The translations under genes and the position numbers were made by a program. Below, one piece after another: positions 221-64,000 of a stretch of 64,000 bases of DNA. The notes under the pieces are model-generated. The model ran no database searches, was not told the origin of the DNA, and worked only from the letters and a program-made list of their open reading frames with translations. Source of the DNA: Patescibacteria group bacterium (GTDB lineage Bacteria > Patescibacteriota > Patescibacteriia > UBA10025 > JAHIVO01); the NCBI GenBank assembly GCA_028718605.1, contig JAQULM010000002.1, positions 257,776 through 321,775 of the forward strand. Direction: 5' to 3'. Numbering within the stretch: position 1 is the first letter of the stretch; every line of letters starts with the position of its first letter.

Positions 221-1078
221 TCATTCCGCGTTCGCGAGCAGTTCCGTGACCTTGATGCCGAGTGTCTTGGCGATGAAATGCGCGATCTGGTAGTCCTCCA
301 GTTGCCCGGCACCATTGATGTGCTGCTGCCGTGCGACATTGATGAGGGCCAGTTTCCTGGCACCGCGCTGGCCGACTTCCCCGGCCGCTTCGATGATCGC
401 ACGTTCGAGCGCTTTCTTCGCTTTCGCATCGCCGCCCAGGCTGTTGATCAGCCGGGTGGCAAACGCTGAGTGGCGGCCGCCAGCTTGTGTCGGTTCAGCG
501 GCGCCGCTGTCCGTGTTGCCGAGGATCGCGTCGATATCATCGATGAATTTCGCGAGCACCAGGCGCGGATTGGCGTCATTCACGGAAACCTTCGCTTCCG
601 CATTGAGCCAGCGTGCCGTGCGCGCAAGCGCACCTGAGGACGATACCTTCGCTTCCTTCTTGAGCTGCGTGCGGATCGCATGGCGCGCCGCCTGTTCGTC
701 GCCGAAATGGCTGATGATGTTCTTCGCGATTGTGCCACGGGCTGCCGGCGCATGGTCCTGCGGGGCGTCCGATGCCTCACCGATGTCGTACACCAGTTCG
801 AGTTCGAGATCCTTGGCTTCTATCCTCAGATACTCGAAGAATTCAATCGCAACTACCACGGGATCCTTGTCGGTCAGGTCGAATACGTCTCCGACATACT
901 CGAGCACGGTCGAAAGCGCGATTCTGTTCTGACGTCCAAACTTGACACCCATGCGCATCATCGCCCGTTTGGCGAGTTCCTGAAAATACTCGTCAGCGTC
1001 CAATTGGGTCGCAACCCTGAACTGTGTGGTGAGAGTGCTTTTCAACACGCTTACCAACTTGTTTGCTCTGGCTGCCAT
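221..1078 (-). CDS. Hypothetical protein, 285 aa; no family recognised.
   Basis: Long ORF. AGGAGG SD 7 nt upstream of the ATG at 1078. No signal peptide or TM segment. Function unknown. Confidence 0.45.
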   Translation of the reverse strand: MAARANKLVSVLKSTLTTQFRVATQLDADEYFQELAKRAMMRMGVKFGRQNRIALSTVLEYVGDVFDLTDKDPVVVAIEFFEYLRIEAKDLELELVYDIGEASDAPQDHAPAARGTIAKNIISHFGDEQAARHAIRTQLKKEAKVSSSGALARTARWLNAEAKVSVNDANPRLVLAKFIDDIDAILGNTDSGAAEPTQAGGRHSAFATRLINSLGGDAKAKKALERAIIEAAGEVGQRGARKLALINVARQQHINGAGQLEDYQIAHFIAKTLGIKVTELLANAE

Positions 1079-5949: not shown

Positions 5950-8712
5950 TCACGAAACGGGCAGGTCTTTCATTTCGCCCCAGCTCTTCCCGACTGACAC
6001 GTCTGTCCTGATCGGCGCACGGAGCTTATGAACGGTGTCCATTTCCTCCGCGACAAACGTCCCGACCCGCCCAACATCCGCGTCCGGTACCTCAAACACC
6101 AGCTCGTCATGCACCTGCAGGATCATCTTGGCCTTCGGGCACACCTGGGGCAGCTTCCGGTGGATATTAATCATGGCTATCTTCATGAGATCAGCGGCTG
6201 TGCCCTGTACCGGCATATTCACGGCCATGCGCTCTGCGGATGCGCGCACCTGCGGCATCGACGAGTTTATCTCCGGCAAATATCGCCGCCTGCCGAACAG
6301 TGTCTCGACATACTCCTGCTCGTGGGCAAGCGAGATAGTCTGCGCAAGGTACTCCTGAATCTCCGGATGCGCGTAGAAATATTTCTCGATAAACGCCCGC
6401 GCGCGCTCCCGCGTCATGTTTTTCCGCGACGCCAGGCCCCACGCTCCCATGCCGTACAGCACGCCAAAATTCACCTCTTTTGCCTCATAGCGCTGGGTGT
6501 CCGTCACCTCGGCAAGCGGAATGCCGTAGATATCCGCGGCAGTCCTGCGGTGGATGTCTTCGCCGTCCTGGAACGCCTTGATCATTTTCACGTCACCGGC
6601 AAGCGACGCAACAATCCGGAGCTCGATCTGGGAATAGTCAGCTGATACGATCGAAAATCCTTTTTCGGCGATGAACGCATTCCTGATTTTCTTCCCGATT
6701 TCGGTCCTGATCGGAATATTTTGCAAATTCGGCTCAGACGATGATAAGCGGCCGGTCGCGGTCACGGTCTGGTTAAAACTTGTATGCACCCTGCCGGTTT
6801 TCGGATTCACCAGCTTTGGCAGCGCCTCGAGGTACGTTGATTGGAGCTTCGCGAGCTCCCGATTCTCAATGATAAGGGGGACGAGCGGATGTTTGTCTTT
6901 CAGCTTCTCGAGCTCCGCAGCTGCCGTGGATATGCCCGTCTTAGTCTTATGGATTCCTTCCGTGCTCACGCCCAGCTTTTCGAACAGCACGCCCTTGAGC
7001 TGGAGCGGCGAATTAATGTTAAACGTCGTCCCGGCCGTATCATAAATTTTCTTCTCGAGTGAAGCGAGTGCCGCTCCGATCTCCCGAGACATTGCCTGAA
7101 GATACTTCGAATCAATCTTGACGCCGTTCTGTTCGAGTGCGGCCAGCACCGGCACGAGCGGCATTTCAATTTTCTGCATCAGCGGCAGTAAATTCTTTTC
7201 CTCCAGCTCCGGCTTGAAATACCGGCACAGGCGGTAGGTATAGTCAGCGTCCTCGCACGAATACCATGAAATTTTCTCGACCGGCACCAGTTCCATGGAA
7301 ATGGCCTGCTTGCCCTTGCCGATGAGGTCGGTGATCGGCTGCATGCGGTACCCGAACACTTCGAACGCGCAGTTATCGAGCCCATGCCCCCGAGAGCCAG
7401 GGTTCAGGAGGTATGAGGCGACCATACTGTCAAAGGCGACCGGCGCCACCGTAATGCCAGATTGGGCCAGTAATGCCATGTCGTATTTGATATTATGGCC
7501 AAACTTTTCGATTTTCGGATCCTCAAGAAGCGGCGTAAGAGTTTTCAACCAGTGGGAATGCGCATGCACATTGAGGTAAAAAGCCTTGCCGTCTTCCCAG
7601 CAAAAACTGATCCCGAGCAGCTTGGCGCGGAACGGATCAACACTCGTGGACTCAGTATCAACGGCGAATGCGTTGTGCGTTCGCGCCTCACCAAGAAAAT
7701 CCGCGAATGCATCGTCGGAATCAACCAACGTATAGGTCACGCCCTCATGCGTTGGTGTCGGCGCTTTCTCTCCCTGAACTGTGCCAGGGCGAGCGTCCGT
7801 TTTCATTTCCGTCATGGCAGCAGGCGATCCGGGCAATCGCGTGAGGAGGCTCTTGAACTGCAGCTCGCGGAATAAGTCAACCACTTCTTGCTCATTATAT
7901 CCGCCGAGGGTGCATTGCTCAATCGTATACTCGAGTGGCACATTACGCACGATCGTTGCGAGGCGTTTGCTCATGAGCGCGTCCTTCTTGTGTTCCCGCA
8001 GAAGCTTCTGGTATCGCGGCGGGACGGGCGTTTTTCCCGACGGCGCCTCCATCTTCCGGTAGATATTTTCGAGGCCGCCAAACTTCTTGAGCAGATCGAT
8101 AGCGCCTTTTTCGCCAATGCCACGGACGCCCGGAATGTTATCAGAGGGATCACCGGCGATTGCCTTGAGGTCAACCATCTGCTCTGGAGCAAGGCCGTAC
8201 CGCTCAGCAAACGCTTTGATGTCATACGTGATAGTGTCAGAAACTCCTTTACGCAGCGTGTACACGGTTGTTTTGTCGCTGATGAGCTGGAATGTGTCTT
8301 TGTCGCCCGTAACAATCACCGTCTTGAGACCGCGCTTTTCGTTGTCGGCTGCGAGCGTGCCAATAATATCATCTGCTTCGAACCCGTCTTTCTCGAATAC
8401 GCGGACGTGTAGCGCTCCGAGCGCTTGTTTTGCGATCGGAATCTGCGCATAGAATTCGTCCGGTGCGGCAACGCGTCCCGCTTTGTATTCTGCGTATTCC
8501 TCGTGCCTGAACGTTTTCTTTTTCTTGTCGAATGCGGCTGCAACGTATGCGGGCTTGAATTCCTTCAATACTTTGAAGAGTACGGTTAAAAAACCGTACA
8601 CGGCGTTCACGAGCTGGCCCTTCTTGGTCGCGAGCGGCGGCAGCGCATGAAAGCTCCGGTGCAGCAACGCATTGGCGTCTATCACCACGAATGTCTTTGC
8701 GGTAGTCTTCAT
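5950..8712 (-). CDS. polA: DNA polymerase I (5'-3' exo, 3'-5' exo-like and polymerase domains).
   Basis: N-terminus MKTTAKTFVVIDANALLHRSFHA is the 5'-nuclease domain. Polymerase motifs RYEAKEVNFGVLYGMG and ILQVHDELVFEV are present. The track ORF extends to 8775, but an extended -10 (TGgTACAAT) inside that extension (rc of 8731-8739) supports the ATG at 8712. Confidence 0.88.
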   Translation of the reverse strand: MKTTAKTFVVIDANALLHRSFHALPPLATKKGQLVNAVYGFLTVLFKVLKEFKPAYVAAAFDKKKKTFRHEEYAEYKAGRVAAPDEFYAQIPIAKQALGALHVRVFEKDGFEADDIIGTLAADNEKRGLKTVIVTGDKDTFQLISDKTTVYTLRKGVSDTITYDIKAFAERYGLAPEQMVDLKAIAGDPSDNIPGVRGIGEKGAIDLLKKFGGLENIYRKMEAPSGKTPVPPRYQKLLREHKKDALMSKRLATIVRNVPLEYTIEQCTLGGYNEQEVVDLFRELQFKSLLTRLPGSPAAMTEMKTDARPGTVQGEKAPTPTHEGVTYTLVDSDDAFADFLGEARTHNAFAVDTESTSVDPFRAKLLGISFCWEDGKAFYLNVHAHSHWLKTLTPLLEDPKIEKFGHNIKYDMALLAQSGITVAPVAFDSMVASYLLNPGSRGHGLDNCAFEVFGYRMQPITDLIGKGKQAISMELVPVEKISWYSCEDADYTYRLCRYFKPELEEKNLLPLMQKIEMPLVPVLAALEQNGVKIDSKYLQAMSREIGAALASLEKKIYDTAGTTFNINSPLQLKGVLFEKLGVSTEGIHKTKTGISTAAAELEKLKDKHPLVPLIIENRELAKLQSTYLEALPKLVNPKTGRVHTSFNQTVTATGRLSSSEPNLQNIPIRTEIGKKIRNAFIAEKGFSIVSADYSQIELRIVASLAGDVKMIKAFQDGEDIHRRTAADIYGIPLAEVTDTQRYEAKEVNFGVLYGMGAWGLASRKNMTRERARAFIEKYFYAHPEIQEYLAQTISLAHEQEYVETLFGRRRYLPEINSSMPQVRASAERMAVNMPVQGTAADLMKIAMINIHRKLPQVCPKAKMILQVHDELVFEVPDADVGRVGTFVAEEMDTVHKLRAPIRTDVSVGKSWGEMKDLPVS

Positions 8713-9090
8713 ATATTTTATACTGGCGTTATTGTACCATTTTTTCTGCCCGCCGTCCCTGCGGACAAATCGCATTGACAGTACGCATACGGCCTATGGT
8801 ACACTTGAAGTATAAAAGGGGGTGTTTGGTTGTCTCCCGATTCACTGAGAGGGGGAATCGAGAGTTCCTTCATCGGTTCGATGCCACAGATGGCATCGAA
8901 AGGTGCCACCAGGCACCGTAGTATCATCGACCGGCCGCCACACGTTCTGAAGTATCTTGATTTTCAGCGGCCGGTCTTTTTTTATTCCATCCAATGCTTG
9001 ACAAATAATGAATTCTCCAATACTATCACCTGATTTGCGTCACTCGCGTTTTTTGACAACATAACAACACGGAAAGAAAGGAAACTGCCA

Positions 9091-10488
9091 ATGGCATACG
9101 AAGAAGAAAGCCGGCGGCAGTTTATTGTCGATCCGGCACACGTACGAAGGTCAAGTTTTGGCTTGCACCCTCGTTTCCACAAGACATTCGCTCGGGCGAT
9201 GCGCGATGGCCGGCGGCTCCCCGTAGAAAAATGGGAAGCGCGCTATCAGCAGCCTATCGCAGCATACCGTGATCCACGGCATCCGTTTGTCTGCGTCCTG
9301 CCGCGTTCTGCGTTCTGCCAGTACGTCGACGACTGCGGCGACTGCATCGGTGGCACGCAAAGTCTGTGGTTCAGCTCCACGGACTTCTACGTCGATATGA
9401 GCGATAAACCGGGTGCGGTATTCGCCCAATTTCACCATCCGCTTTTCGAACGCTTATGGAGCGTATCAGAGCTCCAGTTCCTTGTCCCGCCTTATCCGAC
9501 CGACAAGGAAGATGGTGAACTAGTATTTATCACCCCTCCGTTCTCGCACTCTCGCGGTGAGCACTGCTTGCTCGCCGCTGCTATCGCGGAGGTGCTGCTG
9601 GCGCGGGCCGGATTTTCGACTGAGGAACGGGCGGCATTTGTCCTGGCTATGGGCTACCATGACATCGCCATGCCGGCTGGCGGCGATTCGGTCAAACGAG
9701 TATCCCCGGACGAGCTCGATGAGGAAAAAAACTTTGCCTCACTACTCGAACAAACCGGGCTCGCGGCTGCCTGGAAACAGCAATTCGGCTTCAGCCTGGA
9801 CGCAGCGGCTGCCTGGGTGCGCAATGAGGGAATGCTTGGCCTGCTGCTGGATATCATTGACAAGATATCCTACGTCTCCATGGACTGTTACTCACACGGG
9901 CTATTGTTCAATGGAAATGTGCGGAAGCACTGTTCCCGTCATCCGTTGTTTCTCGATGTGTGGCGGGACATCAGGTTCACCCCGGACCGGCAGCGCTTCG
10001 CCTTCCTCTATCCGGACCGGCTCTTCGACTTCCTTCTGGCGCGTGCGTACGAGTACCAGGAGTTGCTTTTCAACCCAGCTGCCCGGTTCCTCGACTTCCA
10101 CTTGACGAACCTCGTCCGCCCGCTGTACGAAACGGGGAGAATAACCAAAGACCAGCTGCTCAGCTGGTCGGACGGCCAGCTCGAGTGCTGCCTTGAGGCT
10201 CACTATGGGGAAGCGGCGGTTCACCTCTCCGTCATCAATGCTGCTAACTACCAATGGCAGCGGTTTGATACGCAGGAAGAACTGATTGACTTCTGGGGGA
10301 CGCTCGGCAAATCGTTCGATCATGTTGAAACGATTTCAGGATTCAACCCCAATCTTGAATGGCCGGTCTATGCCGCCAACGGCACCGACATCGTTCCTGC
10401 CCGCGAACGCCTTACGCCAGCTCAAATCAGCGAGCTGGAAACTATTGTCAAGGCAACGCGCGGCAACTTTATCTACTGGCACACTTAA
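9091..10488 (+). CDS. HD-domain phosphohydrolase family protein.
   Basis: H...HD metal-binding signature (HSRGEHCLLAAAIAE ... AMGYHDIAM). A promoter-like TTGACA-17-TACTAT lies at about 9000-9028. Confidence 0.5.
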   Translation: MAYEEESRRQFIVDPAHVRRSSFGLHPRFHKTFARAMRDGRRLPVEKWEARYQQPIAAYRDPRHPFVCVLPRSAFCQYVDDCGDCIGGTQSLWFSSTDFYVDMSDKPGAVFAQFHHPLFERLWSVSELQFLVPPYPTDKEDGELVFITPPFSHSRGEHCLLAAAIAEVLLARAGFSTEERAAFVLAMGYHDIAMPAGGDSVKRVSPDELDEEKNFASLLEQTGLAAAWKQQFGFSLDAAAAWVRNEGMLGLLLDIIDKISYVSMDCYSHGLLFNGNVRKHCSRHPLFLDVWRDIRFTPDRQRFAFLYPDRLFDFLLARAYEYQELLFNPAARFLDFHLTNLVRPLYETGRITKDQLLSWSDGQLECCLEAHYGEAAVHLSVINAANYQWQRFDTQEELIDFWGTLGKSFDHVETISGFNPNLEWPVYAANGTDIVPARERLTPAQISELETIVKATRGNFIYWHT

Positions 10489-10530
10489 AACCCCTTGACC
10501 AGCTTGCTGCCAAGTTGTGAAAGGGGTTTT
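10487..10530 (+). terminator. Intrinsic terminator after the HD-domain gene.
   Basis: AAAACCCCTT...AAGGGGTTTT stem directly after the TAA stop, followed by a T-run. Confidence 0.6.
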
Positions 10531-10547
10531 ATATTACGCATTTCCGG

Positions 10548-10576
10548 TTGACAAACGCCCTTTTTTGCGCTATAAT
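10548..10576 (+). promoter_or_regulatory. Consensus sigma70-type promoter: TTGACA, 17-bp spacer, TATAAT.
   Basis: Perfect -35 (10548-10553) and -10 (10571-10576) hexamers. Followed by an A-rich initial transcribed region. A near-identical module is at 61250-61278. Confidence 0.6.
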
Positions 10577-10582
10577 GGTAGT

Positions 10583-10695
10583 AGAAAATAAAAAGCAAAA
10601 GCAAAAAAAGGCTCTTTTGCATCAGGGGACAATCACTTACTCTCGATCCGTCACGCGCATGGCGGCCGGAAGCAAGTGATTGTCCCCGTTTTTTT
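10583..10695 (+). ncRNA. Candidate small RNA (~110 nt) between a consensus promoter and an intrinsic terminator.
   Basis: TSS predicted ~7 nt after the -10. The A-rich 5' part is followed by a 16-bp stem (GGGGACAATCACTTAC...GCAAGTGATTGTCCCC, 10625-10687) and a T7 run. No plausible CDS: the only ATG overlaps the -10 and there is no SD. Confidence 0.3.
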
Positions 10696-10710
10696 GCATA
10701 TAAAAGAAAC

Positions 10711-10737
10711 GGGCGCCGACGACTAGCATCGGTGCCC
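10711..10737 (-). terminator. Intrinsic terminator for the minus-strand gene ending at 10786.
   Basis: GGGCACCGATGCTAGTCGTCGGCGCCC hairpin followed on the minus strand by GTTTCTTTTAT. Confidence 0.5.
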
Positions 10738-10785
10738 GTAATTGTCTTGATAAGGCAGCAAAACATCCAGCATTGAACGAGTCGA

Positions 10786-11271: not shown

Positions 11272-11451
11272 GTACTCTCCTTCCTGCGCTCCACGCAGGG
11301 ATATGAAAGGTTGATATGGTTAAGGACAATTTTTATGTCGGTTTACTATAACTGCGCAGTATACCGAAAAAAAAGATGCCTGTCAAGCCGCGCATTGGGG
11401 GAACGCAAAAACGCCGGCCTTACAAAGACTGGCGTTTCTGTTTTTAATGAG

Positions 11452-25364: not shown

Positions 25365-26069
25365 CTATTCTTCATCGGTCAAGCAGTTGTCAATCACGTA
25401 AAACTTCAGGTCGGCGGTCTTCTCTTTGCCGGTATTTACGTTGATAACGTGCTTGGCAATCCGATTTCGAACGCAGTAGTTGCCGTCGACAACCTCGAAC
25501 CGCCCGTCATGGAAGTTCGTTATGATAACCGCGGTATGTTGCCGCGTTCCAGTGAATTGCATCACTTCACCCGGCTGAGCGTACCGAATTCCGTCCCCGC
25601 GGTTGCGCCAGGGGTAGGTGTCTCGGTAATCGTACGTACCGCCGGGCAACGATGCCGCACCGCCAGAAGCCCGTTCAAGCAGCTCGCACGTGAGCAGTTT
25701 ACATTCCCCGCTGTATCCAGGGATAGTACTGCGATTACTATAGTCCCAGTCGCCTGGGACATAGCAACCCCATACACCCAATATATACTGCTCCCATTCA
25801 CAGGTGACCCGATCATTCTGGTCCCAGATCTGCTGATCAACAGAGTATAATGCCTCGAGAACGATCTGGCGGTTGCGGCCTGCTCGACCGAGCGACTCCC
25901 ACCACGAGCAATTCGGTGGTCTAGCAGCTAACCGTACCTCTCTACTCTGGCCGGTATCTTCCAGCGTTGGTTCAACCACTTGCTCACTATCCCCGCACCC
26001 TTGGAACAGCCCGAGTGCGACGACAAACACAACGGCGCCAACAAGCGCCCAACGTCTCCGTTTCATCAC
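25365..26069 (-). CDS. Lipoprotein with a putative CHAP-like amidase/peptidase domain.
   Basis: Signal peptide plus lipobox (LGLFQGCG). Cys-containing segment (GECKLLTCELL) and TRQHTAVIITNFHDGRFEVVDGNY, resembling the CHAP His region. Confidence 0.4.
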   Translation of the reverse strand: MMKRRRWALVGAVVFVVALGLFQGCGDSEQVVEPTLEDTGQSREVRLAARPPNCSWWESLGRAGRNRQIVLEALYSVDQQIWDQNDRVTCEWEQYILGVWGCYVPGDWDYSNRSTIPGYSGECKLLTCELLERASGGAASLPGGTYDYRDTYPWRNRGDGIRYAQPGEVMQFTGTRQHTAVIITNFHDGRFEVVDGNYCVRNRIAKHVINVNTGKEKTADLKFYVIDNCLTDEE

Positions 26070-33648: not shown

Positions 33649-33677
33649 TTGACACCCCCTCAAAACCGGTTTATACT
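33649..33677 (+). promoter_or_regulatory. rRNA operon promoter: TTGACA, 17-bp spacer, TATACT.
   Basis: Consensus -35 and a near-consensus -10, about 470 nt upstream of the mature 23S 5' end. Confidence 0.55.
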
Positions 33678-34147
33678 ATACATCGCAGCATCAGAACAGT
33701 ATCAACACTTTATCCTCAACAATCGAAAATATGCAAAAAACCCTAATAACTAACCAAAAAGGCGGCTAAATCGTACTATTTGTTGACGGTTTAGTCCCGC
33801 CAAAAGCGGGATTTTTGTTACTCCGAGCGAAGCGAGGAGTAACAACCCCGAGGGAATCGAGGGGTCCCACAGTTTGAAAGCTCAAAACGAAGAGGCGGCG
33901 GAAATATGGCTGAGGCAACAACCCCGAGAGAGCCGTCGGCGAATCGAAGGGTCCCCAAGCACTGCCGCCCAACGTACTTAATACCAAATATCCGAACTGC
34001 CGATCACTCTATCCTCGATAGAATGGTTCCAGATCAGATCTTTGACCGGACATTAACAACTGAATATGGTAGAACGAGATCTTGTAAGCAAGTTAAGTAA
34101 GTATACTAAGACACAAGGACGCAAGTTCAGTGTTTTAGTGATTGCAA

Positions 34148-37272
<3,125 letters not shown>

Positions 37273-37468
37273 CATATTGCAATCACTAATACGCTGATCT
37301 TTTTAGAATCCGTTCTACCATATGAACAAAGACTACGGTCCGCACCTTATTGCGGTCTTTGTTCTGGTGATAGTCCTCTTCGGACTTCTATTTTACCTGA
37401 CGCCGCTCTCATCCTAAGACCGGTCACCAGTGGCCAGAGAGAACAACCATGGTTCGTTGTTCGCTGGC

Positions 37469-37585
37469 CTCTGGTGATTAAGCACCAGGGTCACACCTGA
37501 TCCCATTCCGAACTCAGTCGTTAAGCCTGGTAGCGCCAATGATACTACGGGGCATACTGTCGGGAAAGTAGGTTATCGCCAGAAC
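37469..37585 (+). rRNA. rrf: 5S ribosomal RNA.
   Basis: Helix I CTCTGGTGAT/ATCGCCAGA. Conserved CCCATTCCGAACTCAG and GGTAGCGCCAATGATACTAC blocks. Confidence 0.8.
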
Positions 37586-44429: not shown

Positions 44430-44438
44430 TATTGCTCT

Positions 44439-44522
44439 GGAGAGGTGCCTGAGTGGTTGAAAGGGGTGGTCTCGGCCCGTCATTCGACGGGCCGCCCTGT
44501 CGGATGACAGGGCGAAAACCGT
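44439..44522 (+). pseudogene. Truncated tRNA-Ser-like 5' fragment (acceptor 5' strand, D-arm, anticodon arm) with a 40-nt double-hairpin insertion in the anticodon loop. It has no variable arm, T-arm or 3' acceptor.
   Basis: GGAGAGGTGCCTGAGTGGTTGAAAGGGGTGGTCTCG parallels the intact tRNA-Ser at 44806. The insertion GCCCGTCATTCGACGGGC + GCCCTGTCGGATGACAGGGC separates CTCG from AAAACCGT. It runs straight into the GIY-YIG ORF. Confidence 0.45.
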
Positions 44523-44531
44523 TACTCAACT

Positions 44532-44795
44532 ATGAACAATTACGTTTACATCCTATTATTATCAAACAAACAGTTATATACCGGATTTACAAATAATCTG
44601 AACCAAAGGCTTCGGCAGCATAAGGACGGTAAAGTTCAGTCAACAAAACACCAGCGGCCAGTCAAGCTTATCCACTACGAAGTTTACTTGCAGGAATCAG
44701 ACGCTCGGCGGCGTGAAAAATATCTCAAGACTACAGAAGGTAAAAGGTTCCTCAAACAACAAATCCGCGATCTGTTACTTGAAATGCAAAAGTAG
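44532..44795 (+). CDS. GIY-YIG nuclease-domain protein (87 aa), candidate homing-type endonuclease.
   Basis: YVYILLLSNKQLYTGFTNNLNQRLRQH matches the GIY-YIG motif (Y-x-Y..Y-x-G.T.N...R...H). Sits between a tRNA fragment and an intact tRNA. Confidence 0.7.
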   Translation: MNNYVYILLLSNKQLYTGFTNNLNQRLRQHKDGKVQSTKHQRPVKLIHYEVYLQESDARRREKYLKTTEGKRFLKQQIRDLLLEMQK

Positions 44796-44805
44796 CCCCC
44801 TGAAC

Positions 44806-44892
44806 GGAGGCGTGCGAGAGTGGTTGAATCGGACGGTCTCGAAAACCGTTATACCTGCAAAGGTATCGGAGGTTCGAATCCTCCCGCCTCCG
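44806..44892 (+). tRNA. tRNA-Ser, anticodon CGA.
   Basis: Acceptor GGAGGCG/CGCCTCC. D-arm CGAGAGTGGTTGAATCG. Anticodon stem ACGGT/ACCGT with loop CTCGAAA. Long variable arm TATACCTGCAAAGGTATC. T-arm GGAGGTTCGAATCCTCC. Discriminator G. The acceptor stem is extended by a 7-bp inverted repeat (CCTGAAC...GTTCAGG). Confidence 0.85.
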
Positions 44893-44914
44893 TTCAGGGG
44901 AGTAACTGAATCCC

Positions 44915-60506: not shown

Positions 60507-60884
60507 GTGCAAGCCCAAAACCGGACACCGCTTGATTCCCACGAAATAGCGCACCGCCCATTCACCGGTACGGCGTGGTTGCACCTGTGTGCAATTATCG
60601 TTATCTGGGCATCGCCGTTCCTGTTCCGCTGGCCTGTTATTGCCGCAGGCATCGCGCTCTATTTCATCCAGATACTCTGGCTTGGCGACTGCGTGCTGAC
60701 ACGGCAGCAGTTCAAAACACAGCGCCGAAGCGTAACATTCTACTACTACCTCCTCACTCGGCTCGGATTCACGCCAGACGGGTACCGCGTGCGGTTCGTC
60801 GCTGACTACGTCATGCCGCCGATCATCCTGGGAGCAAGTATCGTATGGCAGGTGGTTTTCGTGAAAGAACCTCTGATTTGGTAA
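60507..60884 (+). CDS. Small membrane protein, hypothetical.
   Basis: Three hydrophobic helices. GTG start. Confidence 0.3.
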   Translation: MQAQNRTPLDSHEIAHRPFTGTAWLHLCAIIVIWASPFLFRWPVIAAGIALYFIQILWLGDCVLTRQQFKTQRRSVTFYYYLLTRLGFTPDGYRVRFVADYVMPPIILGASIVWQVVFVKEPLIW

Positions 60885-60947
60885 ATATTAACCAGGCCAG
60901 ATGTATGAAACGTCGGCCTGGTTACACAATCGCGCACGTGCCTTCGA

Positions 60948-61205
60948 TCATCCAGGAACATGTTCGCGTGCCCGCACCGGACACCTCTCCACGAGGCATA
61001 ATTCACATGCTTCGTGCCATGTTGAACTTGCAGCAAACAAGATAGCTGAGTCAGCAGGAAAGGTGCCTGAGCCATCCCACCGATGTACGCACCCCTGAGG
61101 GAAGAAATCACGGACGGCAAGGAGCGCCCGGACTGACTGCCGTGTTTTATCTGATACTGGCATTGGCTTCCTCCGCAATGTAGCGAGTACGATTTTAATT
61201 TTCAT
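60948..61205 (-). CDS. Hypothetical small protein (85 aa), possibly leaderless.
   Basis: Minus-strand TTGACA-17-TACACT lies immediately (2 nt) upstream of the ATG. GAAGG lies 8 nt upstream. No homology recognised. Confidence 0.25.
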   Translation of the reverse strand: MKIKIVLATLRRKPMPVSDKTRQSVRALLAVRDFFPQGCVHRWDGSGTFPADSAILFAASSTWHEACELCLVERCPVRAREHVPG

Positions 61206-61249
61206 CAGTGTACCTTCGTGCCTTTAAATTGTCAATCACTCGTATGTGA

Positions 61250-61278
61250 TTGACAAAAACCTTTTTTTCCGCTATAAT
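61250..61278 (+). promoter_or_regulatory. Consensus promoter TTGACA-17-TATAAT, second copy of the module at 10548.
   Basis: Perfect hexamers. The -35 is embedded in the palindrome TTGTCAATCAC-N7-GTGATTGACAA (61229-61257). A-rich leader. About 190-nt 5' UTR before the large repeat-protein gene. Confidence 0.55.
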
Positions 61279-61467
61279 AACGTTAGAAATCAAAAATAAA
61301 AATCAGAAAAATAATGTCTAATGCCTATCACATGCGCAGTGGCGAGGGGAATTGCATTTGGATAGGAGGTACTGCCATACGAGCGGTGTACGCTAGATAC
61401 TGCCCGAAGGTTTTTTATATAATTCATTTTCATATACTACTACATTTAAAAAAATAATCGTATCACT

Positions 61468-64000
61468 ATGATTTCACGGAAAGCTCTCAAATTAATACAC
61501 TCCGCCGCATCTATCGTGACGATTCTCGCCATGATTGGGCCATTCTCATTCCAGGGCATGCCGATCGCGCAGGCAGCTGGCGCAGGCAGCGCAAATATCA
61601 CGGGTGTCGTGACAGAACCAGACGGCACCACGCCCGTTGCCTACGCCTTTATCAATATCCATACGAGCACCTGGGACTACTATCTAGGGGCATCGGCGAA
61701 TGAAGCTGGCGCTTTTACCTTCTCCGACGTGCCTGCGGGTTCCTATATACTCGAAGTATGGGCGAACGACGATACATACATTGACCCGCCGAGCCAAACC
61801 ATCACGGTTCCTTCGAGCGGCACGCTCGATGTCGGCACGCTCCGACTAAAAAATCCGAATGTCACTGGTGTTGTCCTGAAAATGGATGGTGTTACTCCCG
61901 TCGCGACTGCAGGGCTCAATCTGCACAACAGTGACTGGTCATATCAACGTTCGGCATCAACGAATGCGGATGGCGAATTTGCCTATTATCTCGGCGCAAG
62001 TGGAACATATACGCTGGAAGTGTGGGCAAATGACCCCGATGGGGCAAACCCGCCCCCGACAGTGTTTAATTTCACCGCAGGCGGGTCAAAATCATTCACG
62101 GGGGCAAACGCGTTGACCCTTCAGGCGCCGAGCGTCCGAGGTAAAATTCTCCTGCCTGACGGCATAACCCCGGCACCGTACGCTAATGTCAGCGTTCATG
62201 ACGAATACTATGCGTACGAAAATTCCGACTGGGTGACGACTGATGCTGATGGCCTTTTTAAAACGAAAAGCCTTGAGGCCGGCACGTATACGATTGAAAT
62301 GACGAACCTCTCTGGTGCTGGCGAGGGGCTCCTTGCGCCCGACGCGCTCACCGCAACGGTAACTGCGGGAACGACGAACACCTACTATCTCACCCACCCC
62401 ATTGTGCTCCAGGAGGCAAAAAAAACCATCCGCGGCACCGTGACAACGCCTGACGGAACGCCTATCACTGACGGGATAGTAAATGCGTGGAGAATGGATG
62501 GAGGCATGGGCAACGCTACAGCAACAACCGACAGCAAGGGGCGATACTCCCTCCTCGTCGGCATGGGAAAATGGCAGGTTATGGTGAACCCTACCTGGAC
62601 CGATGGACAACCAACATGGGGGTACAACGAAATGCCGGTAACTGTAAAATTCGAGCAAGCAAATACAATCGCCGAAACAAAGACCGCCAATTTCGAAGTG
62701 ACAGAGTACACCGCAACAATTACCGGCCGCGTCCTCAATCCAAACGGTTCGATACCGGAGATGAATGAAGTGAACGTAAACGCGTGGAACCCTGGCGGAG
62801 GAGGCGGTGCGTGGGGCCAGATTGATGACGGCGGATATTTTTCCTTGCGAGTCGGGGCAGGCACGTATCAAGTGGAAATTATGCCAAATAACGAAGAGTA
62901 TGGAGCGCCTGAAATCGGACTCATAACTGTCGCTGACGGGGAAACAAAAAATGTCGGCACAAACCGCCTCGTGGTAAAGGATGAATTTATTACCGGCAAA
63001 GTGATCGATTCCAACGGCACGCCGCTCGCGGACCAAGACGTAAACGCATGGAAAGCAACCGGCTCGGGCTGGGGCTGGACGATGACGGATGAGAATGGGG
63101 AATTTACGCTCGGAGTGACGTCAGGTGCGTGGTTCGTCGACGTGATGACGGGCGGCGGCTCTACGGGCGCGGGGGGTGGAGACGGGACGGGAGAAACCGT
63201 ATACGTGCGAACTGATCCTCCACAAAAAATTCTCCTCGACGAAGACGAAACGGTCAGCAATATACTCTTTGAGCTTGCTATCGCAGACGCGACAATCAAC
63301 GGCACCGTACAGGATGACAGCGATACGGTGCTCTCGGATCTGAATGCGTGGGCTGAAGCAACTGACGCCAACCGAACGATGGGTTCGGGAATGGGCGACG
63401 AGGGATATAGCGGCCTGGGGGGTGAGGTGCAGAACGGTAGCTTCTCCATCAAGGTACCTGCGGGCACGTACAATATTAGCGTCTTCATGCCATGGGGATC
63501 TGATTATACGGCCTCCTCAGCCACCTCAGTCACGGTCGATTCTGGGGAAACGTATAATGGCGCTGTCGTGACGGTACTGCCGAATAATGCAACAATCAGC
63601 GGTTCGCTCGTCGATAAAAACGGTGACCCAGTAACCGACGTATGGGGCGAAGTTTTTGCAGACAACGGCATGGGCGGCAACCAATGGGCCCAATTCGAGG
63701 ATGGAACGTATGAGCTGAATGTATCCGCCGGCGAATGGAATATCGGATACTGGACTGACCCGCTGTCCGGGTACCTCCCGAGCAATTCCCATGGTGACTC
63801 AGTGGCTGCGGTCGCTGACAAAATAGTAACGCATGACCTGACCCTGCTCCAGGCTGACTCAACCATCACCGGCACAGTGCTGGACCCGGACGGCAATCCT
63901 CTGAAAAACGTATGGGTTTCGGCAGATACCGAGCTTGGCGGAAGGCAGAGCGGTGCTGATGACTCTCTGTTCTACGACCCCATGTTCAACCAGGGTAATA
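61468..64000 (+). CDS. Very large secreted protein made of tandem CarboxypepD_reg-like (prealbumin-like) repeats. The 5' partial continues beyond the window and is not in the supplied ORF track.
   Basis: I verified codon by codon that the frame is open from the ATG at 61468 to 64000 (844 codons). Signal peptide MISRKALKLIHSAASIVTILAMIGPFSFQGMPIAQA. At least nine repeats of about 85 aa share the pattern [IV]xGxVxxxxGxPxxxAxVxxxxxx ... DxxGxFxxxxxxGxYxxxxxxxG (e.g. ITGVVTEPDGTTPVAYAFINI...AGAFTFSDVPAGSYILEVWANDD). Confidence 0.75.
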   Translation, partial: MISRKALKLIHSAASIVTILAMIGPFSFQGMPIAQAAGAGSANITGVVTEPDGTTPVAYAFINIHTSTWDYYLGASANEAGAFTFSDVPAGSYILEVWANDDTYIDPPSQTITVPSSGTLDVGTLRLKNPNVTGVVLKMDGVTPVATAGLNLHNSDWSYQRSASTNADGEFAYYLGASGTYTLEVWANDPDGANPPPTVFNFTAGGSKSFTGANALTLQAPSVRGKILLPDGITPAPYANVSVHDEYYAYENSDWVTTDADGLFKTKSLEAGTYTIEMTNLSGAGEGLLAPDALTATVTAGTTNTYYLTHPIVLQEAKKTIRGTVTTPDGTPITDGIVNAWRMDGGMGNATATTDSKGRYSLLVGMGKWQVMVNPTWTDGQPTWGYNEMPVTVKFEQANTIAETKTANFEVTEYTATITGRVLNPNGSIPEMNEVNVNAWNPGGGGGAWGQIDDGGYFSLRVGAGTYQVEIMPNNEEYGAPEIGLITVADGETKNVGTNRLVVKDEFITGKVIDSNGTPLADQDVNAWKATGSGWGWTMTDENGEFTLGVTSGAWFVDVMTGGGSTGAGGGDGTGETVYVRTDPPQKILLDEDETVSNILFELAIADATINGTVQDDSDTVLSDLNAWAEATDANRTMGSGMGDEGYSGLGGEVQNGSFSIKVPAGTYNISVFMPWGSDYTASSATSVTVDSGETYNGAVVTVLPNNATISGSLVDKNGDPVTDVWGEVFADNGMGGNQWAQFEDGTYELNVSAGEWNIGYWTDPLSGYLPSNSHGDSVAAVADKIVTHDLTLLQADSTITGTVLDPDGNPLKNVWVSADTELGGRQSGADDSLFYDPMFNQGN

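Follow-up and report, generated by a model that had tools for sequence, protein, structure and literature searches.

The question raised by positions 61229–61320 of the window (the whole 64-kb stretch of Patescibacteria DNA analysed here) is what kind of control region stands between the gene for a giant surface protein and a small gene on the opposite strand, and why part of it is repeated near position 10548, in front of a candidate small RNA (sRNA). An earlier note on this DNA had described the segment as the second copy of a promoter and leader module, here joined to a palindrome and to a divergent transcript. Patescibacteria (candidate phyla radiation, CPR) are mostly uncultured bacteria with tiny genomes and few regulators, and to our knowledge almost nothing is known experimentally about their transcription signals. 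The analysis below suggests that 61229–61320 is probably the core of a divergent control region, in which a strong promoter typical of the lineage and a lineage-specific divergent promoter form a back-to-back pair.

Two copies of one promoter design in the window

The segment lies within a 583-bp intergenic region that extends from a membrane-protein gene of 125 amino acids (aa; 60507–60884) to the ATG of the surface-protein gene at 61468. The features that define the two copies of the design are as follows.

61250–61278, plus strand: P1, a sigma-70-type promoter matching the consensus at 12 of 12 positions (TTGACA at 61250–55, 17-bp spacer AAAACC-T7-CCGC, TATAAT at 61273–78)
61284–61313, plus strand: TAGAAA start motif and A-rich initial tract AGAAAUCAAAAAUAAAAAUCAGAAAAAUA, with the start predicted at A61285, 7 nucleotides (nt) after the −10 element, from promoter geometry
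10548–10696, plus strand: first copy of the module and an sRNA of about 110–112 nt (promoter 10548–76, TAGAAA 10582–87, A-rich 5′ end, hairpin 10625–10685, U-run)

A search of the window for TTGACA-17-TATAAT showed that only two sites, 61250–61278 and 10548–10576, match at 12 of 12 positions. At no more than one mismatch there were four sites against 0.27 expected, a number reached by none of 100 shuffles. Aligned in register and without a gap, the two copies share 47 of 62 positions overall; within the promoter they have 25 of 29 in common, and within its spacer 13 of 17. This bears out the earlier claim that they align almost base for base, and no similarity of at least 36/62 was found elsewhere in the window, in a flanking assembly (L001) or in 12 related genome loci. 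For the A-rich part alone the score was reached by 18 of 500 shuffles, which is weaker evidence of nominal significance only. The sequence 5′ of the −35 element and the structured RNA 3′ of the tract showed no significant similarity in a shuffle test. As the similarity is confined to the promoter and the A-rich tract, the shared module extends from the −35 element to about +28 and no further. Homology of the whole 61-kb leader to the sRNA was considered and rejected, the similarity ending after the A-rich tract.

The design is not generic within the window. Among the 27 promoter-like sites with at most two mismatches, which lie mostly upstream of genes with clear Shine–Dalgarno (SD) sequences, the spacers are mutually unrelated, a T-run of at least six occurs in four, and the full pattern is found at 61250 and 10548 only, in agreement with the proposal of one promoter and leader design at two loci. 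Many unrelated promoters of the same spacer composition had been named as a result that would speak against it; in the window, the other 25 sites have unrelated spacers. Other genes of the window have weaker TTGACA/TAnnnT promoters of similar type with varied spacers, and the promoter candidate of the 23S ribosomal RNA (rRNA) at 33649 and the regions upstream of transfer RNA (tRNA) genes are of a different type from P1. Few tracts of the window have 12 or more A in 16 nt, and the two longest of them begin exactly at the predicted starts A10583 and A61285. P1 lies 190 bp before the surface-gene ATG in the same orientation; its consensus hexamers with a 17-bp spacer and a placement kept at the orthologous gene are those of a sigma-70-type housekeeping promoter.

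A third promoter with a T8 spacer was noticed on the minus strand at 11358–11386 (TTGACA-ggcatcTTTTTTTTcgg-TATACT), upstream of a 161-aa open reading frame (ORF) without a family match. It is convergent with the sRNA and has neither the CGC nor the A-rich start of the shared design.

The proposed mechanism for the plus strand is that P1, a housekeeping promoter of perfect consensus, would initiate transcription probably at A61285, giving an mRNA whose leader of about 183 nt would open with an unstructured, A-rich stretch. Such a promoter would give very high and probably largely constitutive transcription of the surface gene, and the same design would likewise drive the sRNA of about 110 nt, both products most likely being abundant.

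The same design in other organisms

Public metagenomes were scanned with the pattern TTGACA-N7-TTTTTT-NN-GCTATAAT-N5-TAGAAA, which both window copies match. The result showed 13 loci, comprising three orthologues of the sRNA (L016, L020 and L028), one orthologue of the surface-protein gene (L022) and nine unrelated loci. The promoters of L016, L020, L022 and L028 are all composed of TTGACAAA, a T6–7 tract, (G/C)CGC, TATAAT, N5 and TAGAAA. At positions left free by the pattern, AA after the −35 element and CGC before TATAAT are present in all six promoters of the lineage (two in the window and four at these loci), whereas the nine other matches carry the extended −10 TGC in 9/9 and CGC in 0/9; these nine are mostly on low-GC contigs with standard mRNA leaders.

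The promoter of L022 stands 173 bp before the ATG and reads TTGACAAAAGTGTTTTTTTGCGCTATAAT-TAGGG-TAGAAATCAAA, its final eleven bases being identical to the window. Its upstream neighbour is recA, unlike the genes in the window, indicating that promoter and surface gene remained together through a change of neighbourhood. The two surface-gene copies (window and L022) share TAGAAATCAAA and the sRNA copies share TAGAAAA[T/C]AAAAA; these locus-specific start sequences suggest that each locus inherited its copy vertically, under a constraint common to both, and speak against recent copying between loci. Judged by its occurrence across species, the promoter class is real and conserved at both gene types, the sRNA and the surface gene. 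The strong promoter class postulated in the earlier note is thereby supported and extended to L016, L020, L022 and L028.

Some side observations were made at the scanned loci. Between recA and the surface-gene promoter, L022 has a long G+C-rich hairpin, GCCGGGGCGCCA...TGGCGCCCCGG, at 1540–1650, and this region showed no similarity to 60885–61228 of the window. Two of the loci, L017 (333–1390) and L024 (1229–2360), have T-run promoters of the TGC type 180–310 nt upstream of genes with similar helix-turn-helix-like N-termini. In the products of both, hydrophobic stretches follow this N-terminus and there is no Pfam match; the leader of L024 is also A-rich.

A family of small RNAs at the first copy

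The sRNA at 10583–10696 has a predicted fold better than shuffled sequence (z −5.9). Its orthologues are placed as follows.

L016, about 885–992, minus strand: sRNA orthologue
L020, about 8685–8810, minus strand: sRNA orthologue
L028, about 10030–10152, minus strand: sRNA orthologue

In all three orthologues TTGACAAAACCC[A/T]TTTTTTGCGCTATAAT is separated by five variable bases from TAGAAAA, after which come, in this order, an A-rich stretch, a hairpin and a U-run. The single-stranded A-rich 5′ end of the family is about 28–40 nt long. L020 and L028 have the same hairpin as the window (GGGAUAAUCACUUAC...), with the stem GGGAYAAUCRCUUAC...GYAAGUGAUURUCCC, and four compensatory base pairs were counted in it; in L016 the promoter and the A-rich end are kept and the hairpin is different. 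The family, which is kept in at least three CPR metagenome contigs besides the window, is not in Rfam 15. A GGAAGCA stretch had raised the possibility that the hairpin belongs to a signal recognition particle RNA, which was rejected as conservation of the apical part does not extend to L020 and L028 and there is no Rfam hit. Compared with this family, the 61-kb transcript has the promoter and the A-rich 5′ end and lacks the conserved long hairpin and U-run.

The surface-protein gene and its leader

Downstream of P1 the window contains the following features.

61468–64000, plus strand: 5′ part of the surface-protein gene (signal peptide, CarboxypepD_reg repeats)
61285–61467, plus strand: 5′ leader of the surface-protein mRNA, about 183 nt, without an SD sequence before the ATG
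61314–61457, plus strand: 47-codon ORF, probably non-coding, which starts right after the A-tract and stops 10 nt before the main ATG
61394–61423, plus strand: P2, a candidate secondary promoter (TAGATA-18-TATAAT, 10 of 12 consensus positions, T6 run beside the −10 element), based on a consensus match only

A longer assembly of the same organism showed that the surface protein has 1668 aa, with a signal peptide and many CarboxypepD_reg repeats. The module had been said to serve a giant surface-protein gene; that gene is present, with its ATG at 61468 and its length corrected to 1668 aa. The orthologue in L022 has 1669 aa, 61% identity over 848 aa and the same N-terminal signal sequence. It came from the DNA pattern scan, the protein search for homologues having returned two distant matches only (25–29% identity).

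The predicted fold of the leader is no better than that of shuffled sequence (z −0.3). In 60900–61600 and 10480–10780, Rfam at E ≤ 10 gave chance-level matches only, and in the whole window nothing besides rRNA and tRNA reached the gathering score in Rfam 15. As to the description of an SD-independent leader, the window surface gene indeed has no SD sequence, but its L022 orthologue has one (AAAGGA). One segment of the window leader, CAAAAATAAAAA, recurs without a mismatch at the 5′ ends of the L020 and L028 sRNAs. These unpaired A-runs hint at a role at the RNA level, which might be recruitment of the ribosome or of S1, or binding of another protein.

The 47-codon ORF is predicted by one gene caller. 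Its codon score (−0.24 bits/codon) is that of spurious ORFs, no homologue was found in L022 or at any other locus, and there is no Pfam match; it is thus unlikely to be a gene, and a conserved upstream ORF was ruled out on the same grounds. P2 may add a tandem promoter.

A palindrome over two −35 elements

On the side of the divergent gene, P1 overlaps an inverted repeat from which two minus-strand promoters can be modelled.

61229–61256, both strands: perfect inverted repeat TTGTCAATCAC-N6-GTGATTGACAA, with 11-nt arms (61229–61239 and 61246–61256) that are 100% complementary
61207–61235, minus strand: divergent promoter model a (TTGACA 61235–30, 17-bp spacer, TACACT 61212–07; 10 of 12)
61228–61256, minus strand: divergent promoter model b (TTGTCA 61256–51, 17-bp spacer, GACAAT 61233–28; 9 of 12)
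60948–61205, minus strand: small four-cysteine protein gene, 85 aa, or 72 aa from M14

Each arm of the palindrome reads TTGACAA on one strand, so that two −35 elements stand back to back at a centre-to-centre distance of 20 bp, and the symmetry goes beyond the hexamers by 5 bp per arm (the A that follows the hexamer, plus TCAC). The repeat had been given as a perfect 11-bp repeat with N7 at 61229–61257; the arms are perfect, but the spacer is 6 nt and the repeat ends at 61256. Since the left arm supplies a second TTGACA, a second promoter can be drawn back to back with P1. In the proposed mechanism, the left arm would provide the −35 element of a minus-strand promoter, from which the four-cysteine gene would be transcribed through a normal SD leader.

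The palindrome was not found at the 10.5-kb copy, at the orthologous promoter of L022 or at the sRNA orthologues, and the 64-kb window holds no second copy, the sites at 25387 and 29412 being single half-sites, one of them within a coding region. This distribution does not support a shared regulator that binds the palindrome, as the earlier note had suggested, and a palindrome regulon was rejected for want of other copies in the window. Lack of conservation at orthologous loci had been named among the results that would refute the proposal, and in L022, the single orthologue, the palindrome is absent. By its distribution among these loci, the palindrome is species-specific and not part of the shared module. 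The recurrence of its half-sites in the sRNA stem (10629–10683) was recovered as an 8-mer, CAATCACT, or as 9/10 over ten bases, at a level that 2–3% of shuffles reach; having been noticed post hoc, the sharing is probably chance.

A conserved four-cysteine protein encoded divergently

An exhaustive profile search with the 85-aa ORF gave 12 homologues at E ≤ 1e-3 (best 6e-12), of 65–96 aa except for two of about 400–450 aa. The family has the motif FFPxGCxFxWDGxG...C-x2-C-x4-C-x-VR, in which C39, W43, G45, C67, C70, C75 and R78 are invariant. No match was found in Pfam, NCBIfam or PDB, and a structure comparison with PDB or BFVD gave none either; the AlphaFold2 model, which is confident (predicted local distance difference test, pLDDT, 81.5), consists of three helices. 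The codon score of the ORF (−0.11 bits/codon) is that of spurious ORFs and one gene caller omitted it, but the conclusion that it is spurious was overturned by the 12 homologues. By that conservation the small 85-aa ORF, already pointed out at 60948–61205, is a real gene of an uncharacterised conserved family. A WhiB-like identity, suggested by the cysteine spacing, was not adopted, as none of 11 members has a Pfam match. The homologues lie in unrelated neighbourhoods and not beside surface genes, and the gene is absent from L022, implying that its pairing with the surface gene is specific to this genome.

In model a, transcription would start near 61200 and the ATG at 61166, preceded by GGAGGA five bases before it, would be used to give the 72-aa protein. 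In model b, transcripts beginning near 61222 would be translated from the ATG at 61205, with GAAGG seven bases before it, to give the 85-aa protein. The promoter and the SD sequence are both better in model a; the alignment of the homologues favours neither. The minus-strand TTGACA-17-TACACT of model a is present as previously described (10 of 12), but TACACT is separated from the ATG at 61205 by one nucleotide (61206) and not by two. A leaderless mRNA requires a −10 element that ends about 6–8 nt upstream of the ATG. Because TACACT ends at 61207, a start about 7 nt further on would fall inside the ORF; with the −10 element too near the ATG, and with SD sequences at both start codons, the proposed leaderless transcript was not borne out.

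Weighing the interpretations

We consider it likely, though by no means certain, that 61229–61320 joins the lineage-typical promoter P1 to a lineage-specific divergent promoter. Several findings weigh against this reading. The −35 element, the T-run, GCTATAAT and TAGAAA were forced by the search pattern, so the agreement of the loci there is by construction. The A-rich tract of the window does not keep its place in L022, where such a tract is found further in, at +65 to +84 and within a predicted loop. Beyond the two hexamers the palindrome is symmetric over five more base pairs, which would arise by chance about once in 1000 and which promoter function alone does not explain; a species-specific operator, a hairpin role, or a recent inverted duplication that made the second −35 element in one step are possibilities. 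Only one orthologous surface-gene locus was found, and the absence of the palindrome there is compatible with a species-specific operator. The codon usage of the small gene is atypical, and the start sites and promoter strengths are predictions.

The most direct alternative is that a dimeric DNA-binding protein, perhaps the four-cysteine protein acting on its own gene, uses the palindrome as its operator; as the palindrome covers both −35 hexamers, a bound operator would switch the surface gene and the small gene together. The symmetry suits this, with a perfect dyad of 11 bp per arm around a 6-bp centre, 5 bp per arm beyond the hexamers and an overlap with both candidate −35 elements, and so does the small conserved protein of an uncharacterised family that is encoded divergently alongside, a common layout for autoregulators. 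A dyad over core promoter elements is what an operator should have, but conservation and recurrence are wanting: the palindrome is missing from the orthologous promoter of L022 and from every sRNA promoter copy, and the window adds single arms only. The homologues of the protein, moreover, are scattered among unrelated neighbourhoods, the gene is missing from L022, and the protein matches no known DNA-binding family or fold; an operator is possible but unlikely. It is also rather doubtful that the module at 61250 is a second sRNA gene, a paralogue running from about 61285 to the U-run at 61413–61418, with the surface gene served by P2 or by read-through. The first 30 nt or so match the sRNA 5′ ends (CAAAAATAAAAA being the identical part in L020 and L028), a U6 run follows a stem at 61383–61405, the promoter-like site with 10 of 12 matches lies 45 nt before the ATG, and in L022, too, a hairpin and U-rich sequence precede the ATG by about 45 nt. 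Yet the conserved hairpin (GGGAYAAUCRCUUAC...) is absent and the structured parts have no significant similarity, the putative terminator stem is weak (two G-U pairs, 7 nt from the U-run) and is not called by the terminator scan, and the leader fold is unexceptional. A scan of L022 returned no terminator and no second promoter, and the promoter travels with the surface gene across species.

We find it quite improbable that the palindrome works as an RNA hairpin that insulates the locus from, or terminates, upstream read-through, or as a DNA cruciform that hides both −35 elements. The terminator scan does flag the palindrome hairpin followed by AAACCTTTTT, the plus strand of 60885–61260 folds better than shuffles (z −3.3), and other copies of the promoter have a terminator hairpin of the upstream gene directly before them (L016 1036–1063; window 10484–10530, AACCCCTT...AAGGGGTTTT), the one in L016 matching the window palindrome in the size of its stem (11 bp) and loop (6 nt) and being followed by GTTTT, 8 nt short of the −35 element. 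As an intrinsic terminator, however, the palindrome is poor (4/11 pairs G-C, T7 run 5 nt past the stem), and since its upstream neighbour is encoded on the opposite strand, it would be reached only by antisense transcription that reads through the hairpin at 60889–60924 described below; extrusion of a cruciform by divergent transcription is purely conjectural. Least credible in our view is that the likeness of 61250 and 10548 is that of any two near-consensus AT-rich promoters with no shared design. It is true that the consensus dictates 12 of the 29 promoter positions, that the A-rich tract is of low complexity and its score is reached by 18/500 shuffles, and that low-GC, Firmicutes-like contigs also match the search pattern. 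Against this, 13/17 spacer positions and 47/62 positions overall agree in register without a gap, the spacers of the remaining 25 promoter-like sites are unrelated, and the signature is kept across species at both loci, with the unforced CGC in 6/6 as opposed to TGC in 9/9.

A further and highly speculative idea, to which we give little credence, is that the A-rich 5′ tract is a functional RNA element on both the sRNA and the surface mRNA, a landing pad for a protein that binds A-rich RNA, such as ribosomal protein S1 or an Hfq-like factor, such that the sRNA would compete with the mRNA for the factor and tune the output of surface protein. The CAATCACT of the palindrome, common with the conserved sRNA stem, might then be a second link between the two loci. 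If true, CPR bacteria, a phylum in which we know of no RNA regulation, would have a titration circuit like that of CsrB/CsrA.

Neighbouring genes and other features of the window

About 71 kb of the genome of this organism was examined. Two other assemblies of the same organism (L001 and L002) have an intergenic region 100% identical to that of the window and thus carry no comparative information. The 125-aa membrane protein is identical to the NCBI entry 'MAG: hypothetical protein PHY34_00275 [Patescibacteria group bacterium]', and one of its relatives is from Candidatus Kerfeldbacteria. Among 12 relatives of this gene in GTDB genomes, none (0/12) has the surface gene or the promoter module downstream.

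60889–60924, both strands: 10-bp perfect hairpin TAACCAGGCC-N16-GGCCTGGTTA, between the convergent membrane-protein and four-cysteine genes

This hairpin has a T-run on neither strand and may be a shared terminator or an RNA-stabilising element.

The rRNA genes of the window lie at 34142–37584, the 23S rRNA being 3143 nt long against a model of 2925 positions, with several insertions of tens of bases, and the 5S gene following it. No 16S rRNA was found within 34 kb upstream of the 23S gene, which points to an unlinked rRNA operon, a common arrangement in CPR bacteria. At 44430–44893, an ORF for an 87-aa GIY-YIG nuclease (44532–44795, Pfam E 1.4e-16) is flanked by tRNA-Ser(CGA), intact at 44805–44893, and by a tRNA fragment, a tRNA-Ser-like 5′ part from near 44439 that is broken by a G+C-rich hairpin. 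This resembles the trace left by a homing endonuclease that inserted at a tRNA gene.

Significance and comparison with known systems

The conservation of one design at an sRNA and at a giant surface gene offers a concrete, testable picture of a promoter of maximal strength in CPR bacteria. The design could serve to find highly expressed genes and new sRNAs in this group or to build expression tools. The small ORF, missed by one gene caller and open to dismissal by codon statistics, is nonetheless a member of an unannotated conserved family; this family and the sRNA family, both unannotated, may outweigh the promoter finding in worth. The general understanding of bacterial promoter function is unchanged by these findings.

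P1 resembles the consensus promoters of sigma-70/sigma-A in its TTGACA, 17-bp spacer and TATAAT and in a purine start about 7 nt on that is preceded by T, and it shares with promoters of this kind, including the extended −10 promoters of Firmicutes, a T-rich spacer beside the −10 element and a G at −14. It departs from the TGn extended −10 of Firmicutes promoters in having CGC in all six lineage copies, and from ordinary promoters in that the spacer and the first 10–30 transcribed bases are kept across species.

In the symmetry-based bidirectional promoters of Escherichia coli, a symmetric −10 element is shared and the start sites are close, about 18 bp apart (bioRxiv 10.1101/2020.01.31.928960; PMC12825309). 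The locus described here is like them in that DNA symmetry creates elements on both strands and divergent transcription would arise from a short region. It differs in that the symmetry is at the −35 elements, each promoter having its own −10 element (61273–78 on the plus strand, and 61212–07 or 61233–28 on the minus strand), and in that the predicted starts are roughly 65–85 bp apart; the shared −10 element that defines the E. coli class is thus absent.

The CPR sRNA family (10583–10696, L016, L020 and L028) has the promoter class, the TAGAAA start and the A-rich 5′ end in common with the 61-kb copy. The 61-kb transcript is unlike that family in having no long hairpin and terminator, and runs on into a protein-coding gene.

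Surface-layer (S-layer) genes elsewhere are transcribed from highly efficient promoters, often in tandem, and have long 5′ leaders with a stabilising effect, as in Lactobacillus slpA and others (PMC3666127). Unlike such leaders, that of the window has no stable predicted 5′ stem-loop (z −0.3) and no SD sequence and has an unpaired A-rich 5′ end, and its product is the 1668-aa protein with CarboxypepD_reg repeats. The arrangement is nevertheless like that of the S-layer genes, with a strong promoter, a possible tandem promoter and a long leader before the gene of a large secreted surface protein.

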